Assembly: GCA_035542775.1 (NCBI GenBank)
Contig: DATKKX010000078.1
Coordinates: 1 to 23,279 of the forward strand
Source of the DNA: Phycisphaerae bacterium
GTDB taxonomy: Bacteria > Planctomycetota > Phycisphaerae > UBA1845 > UTPLA1
Reading direction: 5' to 3'
DNA length: 23,279 nucleotides
Part shown: positions 1 through 9,355 of the stretch, in pieces
Position numbering within the stretch: the stretch's first letter is position 1
Layout of the letters: each line of letters begins with the position of its first letter
Program-made: the position numbers and the translations under genes
The notes under the pieces: generated by a model
Told to the model about the DNA's origin: nothing
Databases searched by the model: none
What the model saw: only the letters and a program-made list of their open reading frames with translations

Positions 1-765
1 CTTTTTGGCAAATATGCGCTACAAAAACGCGTCCAGCATAGACCGGTAGAAAGCAGCAGGTTCGGCTTGCGCATTGCCCATGACAAGGTTCTGCAGGAGA
101 ACGAGGCGGAGAACCTCATGGTTGACCTCCACAAGCGGGCAGCGTGCGCCGATAGTAAGAATTGGGCAGCTGCGCAGCTCGACGAGCTGATTATCATGGC
201 GCTTTTGTCATCAGGATTGCGCAACTCAGAGTTTTGCTCCCTCGCCGTGGGTGATACGATCCTGGGTTCGGGGACGTCCGCGTTCGTGGTCCGGCGGCCT
301 GCCAGGCGAAAGCGGACGGTATTTGTACCCCGTAGAGTCAGTTCGCTGGTTGAGCAGTACGCAGGGACGGTCCGGCCGCGGTTCCTGCCAGAGGGTACGG
401 ACCCGGATGATCGCACAAAGCCGCTGCTGTTCAACGAGCACCGGCGGCCGTTCGACCGGACCGGGCTGTACCGGCGTGTAGTGAGGATCCTGACTGAGGC
501 CGGCTTGGGGGATCGTGCCAACGTGCAGCTTTTGCGCCATACATATGGATACTTGGCGTATCTGCGGACCGGCGGCAATCTGCTGTTCGTGCAGCGCCAG
601 TTGGGACACGCCCACCCCGCCACGACCTGTGTGTACGCGAAGCTGGTCGACGAATCATATTCGGATTTGGCGGAGCGCATTATGCCTGGCGGGCGTCCTA
701 TGGGGGCCATTGAGGGAAAGCCAGGCGGTAAGACGGTGCCGCGGTTTGATTGCGAGATTGACTGA
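1..765 (+). CDS. Tyrosine-type site-specific recombinase/integrase, catalytic C-terminal part (5' end lies outside the window)
   Basis: The 67..765 ORF has the phage-integrase catalytic-domain signature: box I '...[12 protein letters not shown]', box II '[39 protein letters not shown]' (XerC/XerD-like, nucleophile Tyr in 'VYAKL'). Frame 1 has no stop from nt 1 to 67, so the gene almost certainly continues upstream. Confidence 0.75.
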
Positions 766-854
766 TTCGCCGCAGGGGGCGCTCGGGAGGCGGCACCCCA
801 CCGGCGATGCCCTTGCATGGCGGCAGTGATGGAGATCTTTTGAGGCGACGAGGC

Positions 855-2285
<1,431 letters not shown>

Positions 2286-2304
2286 ACAGCAAAGGCTGGA
2301 ACTT

Positions 2305-2952
2305 ATGAGTAGTAGCACCACCAGCAACTTCGATCTGCGCAGCTATGTCTTTCTCGACAGTCTGCAACCGCAGTTTGCCTCCTTCCTGGCCACCGTGGCC
2401 CAAGGCTTCCTGCCGGTCGCGCATCAGGCGTCGCTCTTCGTCGAGATCTCGCCGGGCATCGAGATCAACCGCATCACCGACATCGCCCTCAAGTCCACGC
2501 GAGTGACGCCCGGCATGCAGATCGTCGAACGGCTGTACGGGATGCTCGAGATCCACTCCGACTCGCAGGCGGACATCCGCCAGGCCGGCCGGTCGATTCT
2601 CGCCGCCCTCGAGCTCAAGGAGGACGATCGCATCAAGCCCGTCGTCGTCTCCAGCCAGGTCATCCGTCGCATGGACGACTACCAGACCCAGCTCATCAAC
2701 CGCATGCGGCACGGCAACATGATCCTGCCCGGCCAGACGCTTTACATCATGGAATGCGTTCCGGCCGCTTACGCGGCCATCGCCGCCAATGAGGCCGAGA
2801 AGGCCGCGGAAATCAACATCCTGGAGGTCCGCACCTTCGGGAGTTTTGGGCGCCTTTACCTGGGTGGTGAAGAGCGCGATATCGACGTGGGCTACCGCGC
2901 CGCCGTGCAGGCCGCGCAGGCTGTCACAGGCCGCGTTGTGGAAAAGGTGTAG
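2305..2952 (+). CDS. BMC shell protein, tandem-domain (BMC-T; possibly permuted PduB/EutL-like)
   Basis: 215 aa with two BMC-like halves: '...[31 protein letters not shown]...' and '...[33 protein letters not shown]...' (D/E-x-A-x-K-[AS]-x-x-V pattern). 20 nt downstream of the fusion gene. Confidence 0.6.
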
Positions 2953-2999
2953 ACACAGTCAGACGATTAGTTCTGACACATAGAGGAGTGTATTCGTCA

Positions 3000-3311
3000 A
3001 TGGCAGAAGCGCTTGGAATGATTGAAACGAGGGGCTTTGCCGCCATGGTCGAGGCGTCCGACGCCATGGTCAAGGCCGCGAAAGTGGAACTGGTCTCCTA
3101 CGAGAAGATCGGCGGCGGTTACGTTACCGCCATCGTCCGCGGCGACGTCGCAGCCGTGAAAGCGGCCTGCGATGCCGGGCAGATCGCGGCTTCGCGGGTC
3201 GGCGAAATCGTGTCCGTGCACGTCATCGCCCGGCCGCACACGAACATCGATATCGTGTTGCCGCTGGGACGCGCCGAGCAGGCCGCGGCGGAGATGCAGC
3301 AGCGCAAGTAG
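3000..3311 (+). CDS. BMC-H shell protein (PduA/EutM/CcmK-like hexamer)
   Basis: Canonical '[60 protein letters not shown]'. ATG 3000 is preceded by AGAGGAG (2982-2988). The track ORF starts at GTG 2988. Confidence 0.9.
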
Positions 3312-3372
3312 GCGCGGCGCGAGCGGATCGCTGCCCTCGACGCCGCTGATGTACGTGCGAGAAAGGATTTTC

Positions 3373-3392
3373 GCGCGAGCGAACTTTCGCGC
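3373..3392 (+). promoter_or_regulatory. Intra-operon hairpin between the BMC-H and BMC-P genes
   Basis: GCGCGA (3373-3378) pairs with TCGCGC (3387-3392) around an 8-nt loop, inside a 166-nt gap that is unusually long for this otherwise tightly packed operon. Flanked by the direct repeat TTTCGCGC..AGCG ×2. Confidence 0.25.
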
Positions 3393-3477
3393 CAGCGGCG
3401 CACAGAGATGCCGGTGAGGGCACCGGCACCACTTGGGCGGCAGTTCACGTGGAAGGAAGACGCAGCGGAGCATCCAA

Positions 3478-3777
3478 ATGCTACTAGCGAAAGTCTTAGG
3501 CACGGTGGTGTCGACGAAGAAAGAGGAGAGCATGAAGGGCCTCCGCTTCATGCTCGTCCAGCCCGTCGACGCCGATGCGAAGCCCGCCGGCGGCCCGGTC
3601 GTGGCCGTGGACGCCGTTGGCTCCGGTCCCGGCGAGTACGTCCTCTACGCCACGGGCAGTTCCGCCCGCCAGACGGTCGCGACGGACAAGCGTCCTTGCG
3701 ACGCTGTCATCATGGCCATCGTGGACAACTGGGAGGTAGGCGGCGACATCAAGTACCGCAAGGGCAAAGGCGGCTAA
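3478..3777 (+). CDS. BMC-P vertex protein (EutN/CcmL/PduN family), paralog 1
   Basis: 'MLLAKVLGTVVSTKK...LRFMLVQPVD...PVVAVDAVGSGPGEYVLYATGSSAR...DAVIMAIVD' fits the EutN/CcmL fold pattern. ATG 3478 with GGAG 7 nt upstream. The track ORF starts at TTG 3433. Confidence 0.85.
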   Translation: MLLAKVLGTVVSTKKEESMKGLRFMLVQPVDADAKPAGGPVVAVDAVGSGPGEYVLYATGSSARQTVATDKRPCDAVIMAIVDNWEVGGDIKYRKGKGG

Positions 3778-3813
3778 CGACGGGACGTTACGCGATGATT
3801 CAGGAGCATGCCC

Positions 3814-5277
3814 ATGTCTCGGCTGAGTGATGAGCACGTGGATCAGATCGCCCGGCGGGTACTGCAGCGCCTCGGTCCGTCCTCGGTCCCACCTCCGGCC
3901 GCTCCGGGACGGCTGTCGACCGCCGAGGCCCGTGCTCTGGGCGACCCCGACAGGCCGGGCGTTTTCGACAAGCTCGATGACGCCATCGAGGCTGCAAGCC
4001 AGGCCTACCGCGCTCTCGATGCGATGTCGCTGGCGATCCGCGACAAGTTCATCGCCAACATCCGCGAGGTGATACTCGCCAACGCCGAGACCCTGGCCCG
4101 TGAAGCCCAACAGGAAACCGGCCTGGGCCGCTGGGAAGACAAACTGGTCAAGAACCGGCTCGTCGCCACCAAGACGCCGGGGACGGAAGATCTTGTGCCG
4201 CGGGCAGCCAGCGGCGACCACGGCCTGATGATCATGGAGCGGGCACCTTTCGGCGTCATCGGCTCGATCACACCCAGCACGAATCCGACTTCCACGATTA
4301 TCTGCAACACCATCGGCATGGTCGCGGCGGGAAATGCCGTCGTCTTCAATGTTCACCCCTCCGCCAAGCGAACGTCCGTCCACACGGTCGCCTTGCTCAA
4401 CGAAGCGATCATGAAGGCGGGTGGTCCCCGCAACATGATCACGACGCTCTCCGAGCCGACGATCGAATCCGCCCAGGCGATGATGAAGCACCCGGGCATC
4501 CGCCTGCTGGTCGTCACCGGCGGCCCCGGCGTCGTCAAGGTCGCCATGGGGAGCGGCAAGCGGGCCATCTGCGCAGGCCCCGGCAACCCGCCGGTCGTCG
4601 TCGATGAAACCGCCAACATCGATCAGGCCGCACGGGACATCGTTCGCGGCGGCTCCTTTGACAACAACGTCGTATGCATCGATGAGAAAGAGGTCCTGGT
4701 CGTCAGCTCCGTTGCTGACGCGTTGCTCAAGGCTCTGCCGAAGCATGGCGCCGTCGTCCTCAATGACACCCAAACCAGGCAGCTATCGAATGCCATCTTT
4801 GAAAAACGGCATGGCCCGCGCGAAGAGGGCGCTATGAAGAAGGAGTTCATCGGCAAGAACGCCTCCGTCATCCTCAGCGCCATCGGCATGAACGTCGGCA
4901 ATGACGTTCGCCTGGCGGTCGTCGATGTGCCGTTCAGCGACCCACTGGTCTGGACGGAACAGCTTATGCCGGTCATGCCGGTGACTCGCGTGTCCGACGT
5001 GGACGAGGCCATCGACGCGGCCGTCCTGGTCGAGGGCGGCCGACGGCACACGGCGGTCATGCACTCGCGCAACATTGACAAACTCAGCCGCATGGCCCGG
5101 CTGGCGAATTGCAGCATCTTCGTGAAAAACGGCCCCGCTTTCGCCGGTCTGGGTGAAGGGGGCGAGGGATATTCATCGTTTTCGATTGCCAGCCCAACAG
5201 GCGAAGGTCTCACCGGGCCGCGCAGCTTTTCGCGTGAACGCCGCTGCGTGCTGGTGGACCATTTTCGGATTGTGTGA
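3814..5277 (+). CDS. CoA-acylating aldehyde dehydrogenase (PduP/EutE family) with N-terminal encapsulation peptide
   Basis: N-terminus 'MSRLSDEHVDQIARRVLQRLG' followed by a Pro-rich linker. Catalytic motif 'SFDNNVVCIDEKEV' (PduP/EutE-type Cys). 'GAGPGNPP' CoA/NAD region. AGGAG sits 7 nt before ATG 3814; the alternative ATG is at 3808. Confidence 0.9.
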   Translation: MSRLSDEHVDQIARRVLQRLGPSSVPPPAAPGRLSTAEARALGDPDRPGVFDKLDDAIEAASQAYRALDAMSLAIRDKFIANIREVILANAETLAREAQQETGLGRWEDKLVKNRLVATKTPGTEDLVPRAASGDHGLMIMERAPFGVIGSITPSTNPTSTIICNTIGMVAAGNAVVFNVHPSAKRTSVHTVALLNEAIMKAGGPRNMITTLSEPTIESAQAMMKHPGIRLLVVTGGPGVVKVAMGSGKRAICAGPGNPPVVVDETANIDQAARDIVRGGSFDNNVVCIDEKEVLVVSSVADALLKALPKHGAVVLNDTQTRQLSNAIFEKRHGPREEGAMKKEFIGKNASVILSAIGMNVGNDVRLAVVDVPFSDPLVWTEQLMPVMPVTRVSDVDEAIDAAVLVEGGRRHTAVMHSRNIDKLSRMARLANCSIFVKNGPAFAGLGEGGEGYSSFSIASPTGEGLTGPRSFSRERRCVLVDHFRIV

Positions 5278-5849
5278 TGACACCGCCCGCCATTGCAGTA
5301 CTGGAGTTCGACAGCATCGCCGTCGGCACGCGCGCCGCCGACGCGATGGTCAAGAGAGCCCCCATCACCGTCTTCCGGATCGGCACGGTCCACCCCGGCA
5401 AGTTCATCGTGCTGGTCGGGGGGAGCGTGGCCGACGTGCAGGAATCCCGGACGGAAGGGCTACTCGTCGGCGGGGCATCGGTTCGCAGCGAGATTCTGTT
5501 GCCGGACGTCCATCAACAGGTCTTTGACGCCGTCAGCGGCAAGCGTCAGGCCAATACCGGCGACGCGCTCGGTGTTATCGAGACGACATCGATTCCGATC
5601 AACGTCGCCGCCGCGGACAAGGCGGTCAAGACCGCCGATGTCACCATCATCGAGATCCGTCTCGGTGACGGGCTCGGTGGAAAGGGCATCACGCATATGG
5701 CCGGTCTGCTCCATGAGGTGCAGGCTGCCGTCGAGGCCGGAGTGGCCGTCGCCACGCGCGTGGACGGCACCGTGTGCCAGAGCATTATCCCGATCCAGCA
5801 CGTTGAGCTGCGCGAGCAGGTGAACAAGGCCACGGAGTTCTACAAGTGA
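5277..5849 (+). CDS. BMC-T shell protein, two canonical tandem BMC domains (PduT-like size, ~190 aa)
   Basis: Domain 1 'IAVLEFDSIAVGTRAADAMVKRAPITVFRIGTVHPGKFIVLVGGSVADV'. Domain 2 'ALGVIETTSIPINVAAADKAVKTADVTIIEIRLGDGLGGKGITHMAG'. ATG 5277 overlaps the ALDH stop TGA (TGATG). GTG 5274 is the alternative start. Confidence 0.75.
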   Translation: MTPPAIAVLEFDSIAVGTRAADAMVKRAPITVFRIGTVHPGKFIVLVGGSVADVQESRTEGLLVGGASVRSEILLPDVHQQVFDAVSGKRQANTGDALGVIETTSIPINVAAADKAVKTADVTIIEIRLGDGLGGKGITHMAGLLHEVQAAVEAGVAVATRVDGTVCQSIIPIQHVELREQVNKATEFYK

Positions 5850-5889
5850 CCGCGCCGGCCGTCATCGTCGTCCAAGCGGAGTCATCGCG

Positions 5890-6174
5890 ATGCTTCTAGG
5901 GCGCGTCATCGGGACCGTTACTCCCTGCGCCGTGTACACCGGTCTGGCAGGCGTGCCTTTTCTGCTGGTTCAGCCGCTCGATCGCGTGGGAAAGGTTACC
6001 GGCAAGCCACTTGTCGCCGCGGATGCGACCAAGATGGCCGGCCCCGGCGAGCTGATCCTGTATGAAGGCGGGCGTGAGGCGGCGTTGGCCCTGGACCCCT
6101 GGTTTGTGCCCGTCGATCACACCATCGTCGGCATCGTCGATCATGTCGACCGTGAGGGATGGAGAAGAGCATGA
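5890..6174 (+). CDS. BMC-P vertex protein (EutN/CcmL family), paralog 2
   Basis: 'MLLGRVIGTVTPCAVYTGLAGVPFLLVQPLD...GELILYEGGREAAL...TIVGIVDHVD'. GGAG 9 nt upstream of the ATG. Confidence 0.8.
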   Translation: MLLGRVIGTVTPCAVYTGLAGVPFLLVQPLDRVGKVTGKPLVAADATKMAGPGELILYEGGREAALALDPWFVPVDHTIVGIVDHVDREGWRRA

Positions 6175-6446
6175 TCCTGTGCCGCGTCAAGGGCGAAGTG
6201 GTCGCCACCATCAAGCATCCGGCCTACAACAACTGGCGGATGCTGTTCCTGGATCGCATCGACCCCGGCGGCAAGGAGACCGGCGCATACCTCATCGCTC
6301 TCGATGCCGTCGACGCCGATCTTGGACAGACCGTCCTGGTCATCGATGAAGGCAATTCCGCCCGGCAGGTGGTCGGCGATCCGCAGGCCCCGATCCGCTC
6401 GGTCATCATCGGTATCGTCGATGAGATTGCCGTTACAGCATCGTGA
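6171..6446 (+). CDS. BMC-P vertex protein (EutN/CcmL family), paralog 3
   Basis: 'MILCRVKGEVVATIKHP...MLFLDRID...AYLIALDAVDADLGQTVLVIDEGNSAR...VIIGIVDEI'. ATG 6171 overlaps the stop of paralog 2 (ATGA), with GGAG at 6162-6165. Upstream ATG 6159 is the alternative start. Confidence 0.8.
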   Translation: MILCRVKGEVVATIKHPAYNNWRMLFLDRIDPGGKETGAYLIALDAVDADLGQTVLVIDEGNSARQVVGDPQAPIRSVIIGIVDEIAVTAS

Positions 6447-6468
6447 CGTCTCGAGGTCACGTTCGACT

Positions 6469-8028
6469 ATGACAGCTCGCGATCTTGTCATTGGCGTAGA
6501 TAGCGGCACACAGTCCACCAAAGTCGTGCTGGTCGACGGCGAAACCGGCGAGGTGGTGGCCGCGGCGAGCGTTCCGCACCGACTGATCGAAGGCCTGCCG
6601 CCCGGGCACCTGGAACAGCGTGCCGAGGACTGGTTCACGGCCTTGGAAGAGGCACTCCAGGCGGCCCTCGCTGATCATTCAGCGGATCCGAAGCATATCC
6701 GTGCCATTGGCGTATCCGGCCAACAGCATGGACTGGTTGCGCTGGACGCCGACGGCCGAGTGATCCGGCCGGCCAAGCTCTGGTGCGACACGTCAACCGC
6801 AAAGCAATGCGAAGAGATCATCGCCCGTGTCGGCGGCCTGGCCCGCTACATAGAGCTCACCGGTAACGGCCTGCCGCCCGGGTTCACAGCATCCAAGCTC
6901 GCCTGGCTGAAAGAGCGTGAGCCGGCGAACTACGCCAGGCTGCGAACCGTATTGCTGCCGCACGACTATCTGAACTACCGGTTGACGGGCCTGTGCCGGA
7001 TGGAGCCCGGGGACGCATCGGGCACGGCGCTGCTCGATGTCCGCCGCCGAACGTGGTGCACCGAAGTCATTGCCGCAATCGACGGCGCGCTCGTCGAAAA
7101 GCTTCCGTCATTGATGGCCAACGATCAGCCTTGCGGAATGCTGAGAAAGGAACTAGCCGACAAATGGGGTCTGCCCGGCGACGTTCTGGTCGCGTCCGGC
7201 GGTGGGGACAACATGATGTCCGCCATCGGAACCGGCAACGTGACCGACGGCGTCGTCACGGTCAGCCTGGGCACGTCGGGCACGATCTTTGCCTATTCAT
7301 CCTCACCGATCGTGGACCCGTTGGGCGAAATCGCGGCGTTTTGTGACAGCACCGGTGCGTGGTTGCCACTGATTTGTACCATGAACGTTACCGTGGCCAC
7401 CGAGCTCACCAAGGCTCTATTCGGTTTGAACAATGAGCAGCTCGACAGCGCCGCCGCCCGTGTGCCAGTCGGCAGCGCTGGTCTCATGTTGCTGCCCTAC
7501 TTTGAAGGTGAACGCACACCCAACGTGCCCAACGGCACGGGCGTATGGTTCGGAGCCAACCGCCGAACCCACACCCCGGCCCACTTTGCGCGGGCAGCGA
7601 TGGAGGGCGCGACATTGGGCCTGAACTACGGCCTGAGACGCTTGCGAGAGTTGGGAGTCGCGGACGAAGAGATCCGCCTGACCGGCGGCGGCGCCAACAG
7701 TGCCGCCTGGCGGCGGATCGCGGCTGACGTATTCAACCGACCGGTCGTCTGCCTCGCCCAGACCGAGGCCGCGGCGTTCGGTGCGGCGATGCAAGCGGCA
7801 TGGTGCTGGCAGAAACAGCGCCTGCCGCAACTGACTATCAGCCGGCTCGCCGAGCGATGGATAGTACCGCTGGAGCAGACGCGAGTGCTCCCCAATCCGC
7901 GAAACGCGGAGCGCTATGCTCGGTTGCAGCGGCTGCACGATCGGCTTTCTATTGCCTTGCGTGAGTCGTTCGATATGCATCGCGAGATCGCGTTGGAGGG
8001 TTTTGAGGGTGGGAGGGCAGGACTATGA
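6469..8028 (+). CDS. xylB: FGGY-family carbohydrate kinase, xylulokinase-like
   Basis: 'LVIGVDSGTQSTKVVLVDGETGEVVAAAS', 'IRAIGVSGQQHGLVALDADGRVIRPAKLWCD', 'GFTASKLAWLKEREPANYARLRTVLLPHDYLNYRLTG', 'GGGDNMMSAIGTG', 'LPYFEGERTP' align along E. coli XylB. ATG 6469 lies 22 nt after BMC-P3. The track ORF start at 6304 is upstream read-through. Confidence 0.85.
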   Translation: MTARDLVIGVDSGTQSTKVVLVDGETGEVVAAASVPHRLIEGLPPGHLEQRAEDWFTALEEALQAALADHSADPKHIRAIGVSGQQHGLVALDADGRVIRPAKLWCDTSTAKQCEEIIARVGGLARYIELTGNGLPPGFTASKLAWLKEREPANYARLRTVLLPHDYLNYRLTGLCRMEPGDASGTALLDVRRRTWCTEVIAAIDGALVEKLPSLMANDQPCGMLRKELADKWGLPGDVLVASGGGDNMMSAIGTGNVTDGVVTVSLGTSGTIFAYSSSPIVDPLGEIAAFCDSTGAWLPLICTMNVTVATELTKALFGLNNEQLDSAAARVPVGSAGLMLLPYFEGERTPNVPNGTGVWFGANRRTHTPAHFARAAMEGATLGLNYGLRRLRELGVADEEIRLTGGGANSAAWRRIAADVFNRPVVCLAQTEAAAFGAAMQAAWCWQKQRLPQLTISRLAERWIVPLEQTRVLPNPRNAERYARLQRLHDRLSIALRESFDMHREIALEGFEGGRAGL

Positions 8029-9149
8029 CGTACGTGCTGTGCGATCTTCGTTATCAGAAAGTCAGGCGAACCCGAGCCGAGTTGCTCAACCATTTGAAGC
8101 ACTTCCGGCTCAAGCCGCGCATTTCCGTGGGCATCTGGTACTTCACGCCCGGCGGCGGACGCTTTCACGATCACTATGTACCGCCCGCCGGCATCGCCGA
8201 GCGCCTGGAGATGGCGGCGGAGCTGGCCCCACTCGGCGTCAGCGGGATTGAGGCCCACTATCCCGCGGAAGTGAACGAAGAGAATCTGCATCTGTACAAG
8301 AAGCTGGAGGAACAGGCCGGCATCCGTCTGGCCGCAATTCCATTCTCCCATTTCTTCGACAAGGATTTCGAGTTCGGCAGCCTGTCCAGCCCGTACCCCG
8401 CGGTCCGCCGCAAAGCCGTCGAGATAGCCATTGGCGGCCTGAAGCTTGTTCGAGACGCCGGAGCTTCGGTGGCGATCTCCTGGCCGGGCATCGACGGCTA
8501 CACCTACTCTTTGGGCACGGTATTCCCGTGGATGTGGGATCGATTCGAAGGAGCGTTGGCGGAGGCCATGGACGAGGTTCCCGGCGTGCGGGTCGCCATC
8601 GAGCCGAAGCCTTATGAGCCGGCCCCAAACAACATCTATCGCACGACTGCCGAGGGCATCCTCGCGGCACAGCGGATCGAGGCCCGGCTGACCAACGTCG
8701 TCAACCGCAAACTCCTTGACGCGGGACACGCCCTCGTCGGCTTGAATCCCGAGATCGGGCACGTCCGCATGGGGGGGGAGGATTGCGCCGCCGTGTTCAG
8801 CGTGGTCGGAGTCGAGGGGCGGCTGGCACATACGCACTGGAACTCGCAGCCACTCGGCAACTACGACCAGGATCTGAATATCGGAGTAGTCGACTGGCAG
8901 CAAGCGGAGGCCCTGCTGTTTGCCCTTTGGCAAATGGGCTACGCCGAGTGGTTTGGAATCGACATCAATCCCGAGCGAATACCGGTGCGCAAGGCGGTCG
9001 AAATCAATGTGACCGTCTTGCGGATTCTGCAGGAGCGGATTGAGGTGCTGCCCGTGGAGAGGATTCTGGATTGCGCTGAGGATCCGGCCGCTCATCGTGG
9101 CGAACTCGAGATGATCCTGGCGGAGACCTTTCGCCGCCGGCCGTTGTGA
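8025..9149 (+). CDS. Xylose-isomerase-family (class I XylA-like TIM barrel) sugar isomerase, divergent
   Basis: 'VAIEPKPYEP' (XylA IEPKPxEP motif), 'GLNPEIGHVRMGG' (NPEVGH metal site) and 'GNYDQDLNIG' (DQD metal ligands) are present. Length 374 aa fits a class I XylA. ATG overlaps the kinase stop (ATGA) with GGGAGGG 7 nt upstream. Confidence 0.7.
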   Translation: MTYVLCDLRYQKVRRTRAELLNHLKHFRLKPRISVGIWYFTPGGGRFHDHYVPPAGIAERLEMAAELAPLGVSGIEAHYPAEVNEENLHLYKKLEEQAGIRLAAIPFSHFFDKDFEFGSLSSPYPAVRRKAVEIAIGGLKLVRDAGASVAISWPGIDGYTYSLGTVFPWMWDRFEGALAEAMDEVPGVRVAIEPKPYEPAPNNIYRTTAEGILAAQRIEARLTNVVNRKLLDAGHALVGLNPEIGHVRMGGEDCAAVFSVVGVEGRLAHTHWNSQPLGNYDQDLNIGVVDWQQAEALLFALWQMGYAEWFGIDINPERIPVRKAVEINVTVLRILQERIEVLPVERILDCAEDPAAHRGELEMILAETFRRRPL

Positions 9150-9303
9150 TCTTCCCCGATTGGGCTGCAAGCCCTCGGCACGTGCCCGCTCCGTCCCCAT
9201 TGGCATTGCAGACAACACCGCCACGGAATGATGCTTTCACAAGGCTCTTTGTCTGAACAACCGCAAAGAAAGCCGGTTTCAATTCTCCGGGCGATGCCGG
9301 CTC

Positions 9304-9313
9304 GTGGTAGAAT
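9304..9313 (+). promoter_or_regulatory. Candidate extended −10 promoter element (TGgTAGAAT) upstream of the nuclease gene
   Basis: TG-n-TAGAAT at 9305-9313, ~43 nt upstream of GTG 9356. No convincing −35. Lies in the only sizeable + strand intergenic gap (9150-9355). Confidence 0.2.
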
Positions 9314-9355
9314 AGCACCGGCGAGAGAGACCGCAGGGGATGGGAGATCTACAAC

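Follow-up and report, generated by a model that had tools for sequence, protein, structure and literature searches.

A xylulokinase-isomerase gene pair beside a sugar-phosphate microcompartment operon in a Phycisphaerae genome: a probable free-standing aldose-utilization cassette with a hybrid metal site

A kinase gene and an isomerase gene at positions 6469 to 9149 directly follow a bacterial microcompartment (BMC) operon in the genome of a Phycisphaerae bacterium (GCA_035542775.1, contig DATKKX010000078.1). The stretch analyzed, hereafter the window, covers 23,279 nt of this contig, and all coordinates refer to it (Table 1). Its plus strand carries one compact series of genes in the same direction across the 67 to 10390 region. 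The last shell gene, BMC-P3, ends at 6446 and the kinase ATG lies at 6469; the kinase stop codon (TGA, 8026-8028) and the isomerase start codon (ATG, 8025-8027) overlap to read ATGA. Both the 22-nt spacing and the overlap given in an initial annotation of this DNA were thereby confirmed. The kinase start is supported by its orthologs, whose N-termini coincide with MTARDLVIGVDSGTQ, and a Shine-Dalgarno-like GGGAGGG precedes the isomerase start by about 8 nt. From the overlap, translation of the kinase and the isomerase is predicted to be coupled.

Both FGGY domains were found in the kinase (PF00370, 1.8e-60; PF02782, 7.2e-24), and its score of 537.9 bits against the XylB equivalog model TIGR01312 passes the cutoff of 380.25 bits, which bears out its annotation as XylB-like. 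Rhamnulokinase models reached only about 50 bits, and ribulokinase and fuculokinase models were likewise far below the XylB score. The kinase would thus be expected to phosphorylate D-xylulose. In length and at both termini, it matches orthologs that have no BMC linkage.

The isomerase matches PF01261, the xylose-isomerase-like TIM-barrel family (46.7 bits), in line with its annotation as XylA-like. Its score against the class I XylA model TIGR02631 is 68.4 bits, which fails the cutoff of 447 bits, and the class II XylA model gave no match. The L-rhamnose isomerase (L-RhI) models TIGR02629 and TIGR02635, for the P. stutzeri and Streptomyces subtypes, failed as well (19.8 versus 646.75 bits and 45.2 versus 531.35 bits, respectively). 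Identity to solved class I xylose isomerases (XIs) is 23-24%, and the protein is an ortholog of neither canonical XylA class. An AlphaFold (AF2) model of the isomerase (pLDDT 87, pTM 0.89) was compared to known structures using Foldseek. The model shares the (beta/alpha)8 barrel and helical C-terminal tail of class I XylA (Streptomyces, Thermus, and Actinoplanes), with TM scores of 0.70 to 0.72 and E values of about 1e-18. It likewise shares the two-metal hydride-shift architecture of the P. stutzeri-type L-RhI (TIGR02629; TM 0.75), although sequence identity is 18-19% and the isomerase is some 60 residues shorter. The best profile match (89 bits) and the best TM scores (0.76/0.86) were obtained for PDB 3ktc, an uncharacterized putative sugar isomerase from Pectobacterium atrosepticum solved by structural genomics, which has the same barrel but counts 333 aa and carries Asp in place of Glu243. 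Overall, the model appears about equally close to class I XI, 3ktc, and the P. stutzeri L-RhI.

Homologs at 60-92% identity form a separate, conserved family. It is found in Phycisphaerae, Sumerlaeota/BRC1, Gemmatimonadota, Spirochaetes, Elusimicrobia/Endomicrobia, Dictyoglomota, Atribacterota, Aminicenantes, and Fibrobacteres, as well as in metagenome-assembled genomes of Asgard (Promethearchaeota/Hodarchaeota), Bathyarchaeota, and Nitrososphaeria archaea (loci L013, L032, L053, L060, L072, L079, and L164). The family spans at least 430 species, as 430 species-representative genomes encode a relative with the family-specific peptides [IL]EPKPYEP and SWPG[IM]DGY. The archaeal isomerases are 60-67% identical to the bacterial proteins, which points to inter-domain transfer. 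In the Hodarchaeota locus, the isomerase lies away from the archaeal SPU-type compartment genes. Database labels are inconsistent and include "xylose isomerase," "TIM barrel protein," and "sugar phosphate isomerase/epimerase."

At the active site, the isomerase keeps the XI metal ligands Glu181, Glu217, His220, Asp255, Asp257, and Asp287 and differs in just one of the seven, Asp245, where it has His271. The initial annotation had placed His at the Asp245 position, and there it stands: when Thermus XI is aligned pairwise using phmmer (GRLAHTHWNSQPLGNYDQDLNIG), His271 lies opposite the Asp of FHIDLN, and a profile alignment of 26 family sequences gives the same result. With the profile alignment, the idea that more careful aligning would restore Asp here was discarded. 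His271 is invariant in all 26 family sequences, as are the other isomerase residues listed in Table 1, most of which match XI residues in the alignments. The equivalents of the XI pocket residues are also kept. The isomerase motif IEPKPYEP fits [LI]-E-P-K-P-x(2)-P, which we take to be the PROSITE signature of XylA with the catalytic Lys, and is invariant in the family. By contrast, [FL]-H-D-x-D, presumably the second PROSITE signature, around the ring-opening His, is not matched: the His is kept (EAHYPAE), but a gap of 8 residues takes the place of the DxD segment when the isomerase is aligned to Thermus XI. Unlike class I XylA, the family has invariant residues of its own, including H109, E116, F117, and an NSQP motif.

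According to a 2024 review, the metal at site M1 of L-RhIs is bound by Glu219, Asp254, His281, and Asp327, where Asp254 and His281 are the counterparts of XI Glu217 and Asp245 (PMC11485043). Compared to this set, the isomerase shares the His as third ligand, but its second ligand is Glu, as in XI, and not Asp. With an XI-like Glu at one position and an L-RhI-like His at the other, the metal site of the family is a hybrid, and the family apparently represents a third, uncharacterized lineage beside XI and L-RhI. More distant relatives were sought exhaustively among 1.84 billion cluster representatives, and 17 of them, at 26-50% identity, were aligned. In these, the His271 column holds His in 14 (including a group of about 325 aa with HxHxND) and Asp in one, while two look degenerate; 3ktc has Asp in this column. 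His271 as a unique feature was rejected by this alignment. The metal site is therefore unusual when compared to canonical XylA, as initially annotated, but not when compared to L-RhIs and most of the distant relatives. Since His is normal in the former and common in the latter, it is by itself weak evidence for the non-xylose substrate at which the annotation took it to hint. Two full-length relatives of about 380 aa at 32-33% identity (P0257 and P0259) have lost EPKP, the His of NPEIGH, and the His/Asp ligands, and may be catalytically dead paralogs.

Some members of the family are labeled by NCBI as "sugar phosphate isomerase/epimerase family protein," and PF01261 includes many such enzymes. 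The TIM-barrel protein could accordingly be a sugar-phosphate isomerase or epimerase that works after the kinase. This is most improbable in view of the full set of two-metal XI/L-RhI ligands, the EPKP Lys, and YDQD, which indicate a free-aldose hydride-shift enzyme rather than a single-metal epimerase; XI and L-RhI are also the nearest folds.

The operon upstream of the pair combines a fusion of ribose-5-phosphate isomerase (RPI) and deoxyribose-phosphate aldolase (DERA) with an aldehyde dehydrogenase (AldDH), a BMC-P triplet, and a CsoS1D-like BMC-T, a set that defines the SPU3 subtype (PMC11585597, PMC8217296). SPU3 loci with the RPI-DERA fusion have been described (PMC11585597), and SPU microcompartments have been proposed to break down deoxyribose 5-phosphate derived from DNA (PMC11585597, PMC8217296). 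By its gene content, the upstream BMC is thus an SPU3-type sugar-phosphate microcompartment with an RpiB-DERA fusion. It resembles known SPU3 loci (Sutter 2021; Dwyer 2024) in all these components, but the kinase and the isomerase lie outside the SPU loci described or sampled. The main texts of PMC11585597, PMC8217296, and PMC4207490 mention neither of the two.

The linkage between the pair and the BMC was assessed from both sides. In 80 genome loci of the isomerase family, extended by up to ±10 kb, tblastn with all nine BMC-operon proteins detected no shell protein, DERA, RpiB, or orthologous AldDH, including in Phycisphaerae relatives at 76-80% identity. Conversely, the isomerase was absent from all 80 metagenome loci with RpiB-DERA relatives, of which 32 span 8 kb or more and about 23 contain a complete set of shell genes. 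A single one of these loci has an FGGY gene (28% identical, several kb off), and no recurring gene family was found 3' of the RpiB-DERA-relative loci. The closest relative, at 92% identity, carries a BMC operon of identical gene set on a 57.7-kb contig, but there BMC-P3 and the kinase are separated by the gene for the 344-aa protein, which is flanked by spacers of 230 and 205 nt, so that this gene and the pair have traded places. In an 85% relative (locus L081), the pair is found beside sulfatase, permease, and rhamnose genes, and no BMC genes occur at this locus. Neither the kinase nor the isomerase has an N- or C-terminal extension of the encapsulation-peptide type when compared to non-BMC orthologs. 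The GC3 of both genes is within the range of the adjoining genes, and the GC/GC3 comparison gave no sign of recent foreign insertion. The kinase-isomerase pair is probably a free-standing cassette, and its position beside the BMC would be a lineage-specific accident of gene order with no functional part in the microcompartment.

These results bear on the metabolic puzzle that the initial annotation had seen in the coupling of the pair to the BMC. Its statement that a ketose 5-phosphate is not a DERA substrate is established knowledge and holds. A functional coupling is not borne out by the reciprocal loci, the altered gene order of the 92% relative, and the missing encapsulation extensions. 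The evidence favors the first of the two solutions offered at the time, in which the pair feeds the pentose-phosphate side and the BMC handles another sugar phosphate, and largely resolves the puzzle in this direction. Alternatively, the pair could feed the microcompartment, if a pentulose 5-phosphate were converted by an epimerase and RpiB to ribose 5-phosphate or a related sugar phosphate, which DERA would cleave to supply AldDH with an aldehyde. Such a route would suit the 22-nt gap without a terminator, which suggests co-transcription, the persistence of BMC, pair, and 344-aa gene as neighbors in the 92% relative, and the unexplained role of RPI in SPU BMCs (PMC11585597). It is nevertheless very unlikely, for several reasons besides the absence of conserved linkage, the shuffled order, and the lack of extensions. 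At 274 bits versus a cutoff of 117, the DERA domain qualifies as a true deoC equivalog, and the window contains no gene for a ribulose-phosphate epimerase. Moreover, the RpiB domain reads IVIDRAGIG versus IVICGTGLG, so that Asp-Arg-Ala (Asp codon at about 1071-1073) replaces the catalytic Cys-Gly-Thr of characterized RpiBs. SPU RPIs are reported to lack the active-site Cys and to have little or no ribose 5-phosphate isomerase activity (PMC11585597). A link to the pentose phosphates through RpiB is therefore unlikely, and the sole obvious bridge to the compartment is gone.

In this genome, the pair is probably co-transcribed with the BMC operon. A scan of positions 1 to 10600 for promoters and terminators found neither a promoter-like site on the plus strand nor a convincing terminator at either junction. 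A 6-bp hairpin across the BMC-P3 stop and the Shine-Dalgarno region of the kinase is no stabler than those of shuffled sequences (z = -0.21). The lack of such signals between 6446 and 6469 makes read-through from the BMC operon likely here. Given the shuffled order in the nearest relative, this read-through arrangement appears to be under no strong constraint.

The gene context of the isomerase was then compared across the 80 genome loci. Neighbor counts are based on tblastn; greedy calling of open reading frames in high-GC loci gave antisense shadow frames (cluster c2), which were ignored. An FGGY kinase gene lies within 300 nt of the isomerase gene on the same strand in 50 of the 80 loci, downstream in 40 and upstream in 10. 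Partner kinases from Endomicrobia (549.7 bits), a second Phycisphaerae-like contig (524.4 bits), and Gemmatimonadota (381.8 bits) pass or reach the XylB cutoff, and the divergent partner kinases of Spirochaetes and Fibrobacteres still have XylB as their best match. Further neighbors are SSF symporters (15 loci), GH3 enzymes with a xylan beta-xylosidase as best model match (13 loci), GH31 enzymes (6 loci; 568 bits against an alpha-xylosidase model, below the cutoff of 606), true transketolase (4 loci; 781 bits), ABC sugar-binding proteins (4 loci), and ROK proteins (3 loci). A kinase partner together with xylosidase-like, transporter, and transketolase neighbors is the expected setting of a xylose or xyloside utilization module. 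This is consistent with xylAB operons, in which isomerase and xylulokinase genes adjoin and ROK regulators, transporters, xylosidases, and transketolase are often present. It differs from them in that the isomerase is orthologous to neither canonical XylA class and that the pair in the window is appended to a BMC operon. No second XI-type gene was found in the isomerase-family neighborhoods or in the window.

Some individual gene orders were inspected as well. In Endomicrobia (L010 and L016, 6408-11113), genes for a sugar-binding protein, XylB, full-length transketolase, and the isomerase lie in this order, and in a Spirochaete (L038, 3591-8201), a split transketolase comes after the isomerase. 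Both orders are compatible with xylose catabolism and also resemble isomerase-kinase-transketolase routes for other pentoses. In L081 (11500-16739), the genes after the pair encode an amino-acid permease, a second, short PF01261 protein, fragments of alpha-L-rhamnosidase, and an FGGY protein resembling rhamnulokinase (445 bits, below the cutoff); this region is a mixed plant-sugar scavenging neighborhood.

A cassette of the same design could act on another free aldose, such as a sugar of the L-rhamnose/L-lyxose type, D-ribose, L-arabinose, or a rare sugar, with the kinase acting on the matching ketose. The His at M1 corresponds to the L-RhI state, the isomerase is far under the XylA cutoffs, and its fold is as similar to the P. 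stutzeri L-RhI (TM 0.75) as to XI. In addition, the rhamnosidase and rhamnulokinase of L081 lie 4-7 kb from the pair, and the Spirochaete partner kinases are divergent FGGY proteins under the XylB cutoff. We consider this possibility unlikely, though less so than the others, because the partner kinases of three phyla pass the XylB equivalog cutoff while rhamnulokinase models reach about 50-65 bits, and the partner in the window is likewise XylB-type. The separate rhamnulokinase of L081 also implies that its XylB-like kinase is not a rhamnulokinase. Further points against another aldose are the xylosidase-like GH3, GH31, and transketolase neighbors, the Glu rather than Asp at the XI Glu217 position, the retained XI pocket, and the L-RhI model scores of 20-45 bits against cutoffs of more than 500.

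Taken together, we favor, with a probability of roughly 60%, that positions 6469 to 9149 encode a self-contained cytosolic aldose-utilization cassette that converts D-xylose to D-xylulose 5-phosphate and neighbors the BMC by accident. The isomerase would be an aldose-ketose isomerase of the xylose isomerase/L-rhamnose isomerase clade that uses a metal-mediated hydride shift at a two-metal center. Its M1 metal would be held by Glu193, Glu243, His271, and Asp313 and its M2 metal by Glu243, His246, Asp281, and Asp283, with His78 and Lys195 as retained catalytic residues. The likeliest reaction is that of D-xylose to D-xylulose, from which the XylB-type kinase would yield D-xylulose 5-phosphate for the pentose-phosphate pathway. 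The microcompartment, apart from the pair, would degrade deoxyribose 5-phosphate through DERA and AldDH.

Several observations weigh against this proposal. The isomerase fails the XylA cutoff and lacks the HDxD signature, and no assay of any member of its family was found in a literature search, in which queries for a "class III" xylose isomerase returned nothing relevant and queries for D-apiose isomerase and apulose kinase, an alternative isomerase-kinase-transketolase pathway, nothing usable. In L-RhIs, His at M1 goes along with substrate binding through O1/O2/O3 instead of O1/O2/O4 (PMC11485043). In many loci (Sumerlaeota, Dictyoglomota, and archaea), the isomerase stands alone among unrelated genes, and in L081 rhamnose genes are close by. 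Finally, the 22-nt gap without a terminator makes co-expression of the pair with the BMC probable, and the neighborhood persists in two related genomes, so there may be some regulatory logic behind it.

The remaining interest lies in the isomerase family itself, which is very large, tightly conserved, inconsistently labeled, and neither canonical XylA nor L-RhI. As a tentative proposal, held with less confidence than the cassette itself, the 374-aa protein could represent a third, biochemically uncharacterized class of xylose/aldose isomerases. This class would combine an XI-type Glu and an L-RhI-type His in its metal site, would have spread horizontally over at least 12 bacterial phyla and Asgard, Bathyarchaeial, and Nitrososphaerial archaea at 60-70% identity, and could be the xylose isomerase that has so far been overlooked in many uncultured biomass degraders. 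On a more speculative note, it may have been recruited in this lineage to co-expression with the SPU BMC, co-regulating the scavenging of pentoses and deoxypentoses. If the family are true xylose isomerases, predictions of pentose utilization for many uncultured bacteria and archaea hinge on it, and its His-containing M1 site would offer a new scaffold for glucose/xylose isomerase engineering. For microcompartment biology, neither the kinase nor the isomerase should be listed among SPU-BMC components, and nothing here calls for new DERA or RpiB chemistry.

Table 1. Genes, junctions, and isomerase active-site residues in the window
Feature	Position	Strand	Basis or remark
Tyrosine-recombinase fragment (phage-integrase family, 232 aa)	67-765	+	Adjoins BMC operon
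BMC operon, whole (SPU3 type)	807-6446	+	Domain/model searches; same gene set in 92% relative
RpiB::DeoC (RpiB-DERA) fusion	807-2285	+	deoC equivalog, 274 bits; RpiB, 183 bits
215-aa BMC protein, CsoS1D-like BMC-T	2305-2952	+	CsoS1D_N found on its ortholog
BMC-H	2988-3311	+	
BMC-P1	3478-3777	+	
Acylating aldehyde dehydrogenase (AldDH)	3808-5277	+	PRK15398, 654 bits
Tandem-domain BMC-T	5274-5849	+	
BMC-P2	5890-6174	+	
BMC-P3 (EutN_CcmL)	6159-6446	+	
22-nt spacer, BMC-P3 to kinase	6447-6468	+	Read from sequence
FGGY carbohydrate kinase, XylB-type xylulokinase, 519 aa	6469-8028	+	PF00370, PF02782, TIGR01312
ATGA, kinase stop/isomerase start overlap (predicted translational coupling)	8025-8028	+	Read from sequence
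XI/L-RhI-like two-metal TIM-barrel isomerase, 374 aa	8025-9149	+	PF01261, fold, family
Codons of Glu193-Pro-Lys195 in IEPKPYEP (XI Glu181/Lys183)	8601-8609	+	Family-invariant
Codons of Glu243 to His246 in NPEIGH (XI Glu217/His220)	8751-8762	+	Alignments
Codon of His271, aligned to XI metal-1 ligand Asp245	8835-8837	+	Alignments; 26/26 invariant
Codons of Asp281-Gln-Asp283 in YDQD (XI Asp255/Asp257)	8865-8873	+	Alignments
His78, motif EAHYP			Equivalent of XI ring-opening His54
Trp38, Phe110, Trp153			Equivalents of XI Trp16, Phe94, Trp137 (pocket)
His269, His271, motif AHTHWNSQP			His271 = XI Asp245; no XI counterpart given for His269
Asp313, motif GIDINPE			Equivalent of XI Asp287
344-aa secreted protein	9356-10390	+	206-nt gap after isomerase

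Within the shell operon, AldDH and the tandem-domain BMC-T overlap by 4 nt (5274-5277) and BMC-P2 and BMC-P3 by 16 nt (6159-6174), which suggests tight translational coupling there too. The integrase-family gene lies 41 nt upstream of the operon, an arrangement shared with the closest relative. This hints at a present or former location of the BMC locus on a mobile element. In 8 of 21 longer SPU-like loci (loci L082-L161), a gene for a GntR/UTRA-type regulator is found just upstream of the RpiB-DERA gene (e.g., L160, 1811-2596); in the window, the integrase fragment occupies this place.

The 344-aa protein downstream of the isomerase has no Pfam match itself, and none of the other 80 SPU-like loci encodes it. 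It contains a signal peptide, followed by WGASGH, an HxxxDLHNPLH motif, and a dockerin-like tail. S1-P1_nuclease or Zn-dependent phospholipase C domains, together with T9SS or PEP-CTERM anchors, are found in its homologs (40-47% identity), and the protein is accordingly predicted to belong to the S1-P1 nuclease/Zn-phospholipase C superfamily. Should it be a nuclease, it would suit the scavenging of DNA for the SPU compartment.

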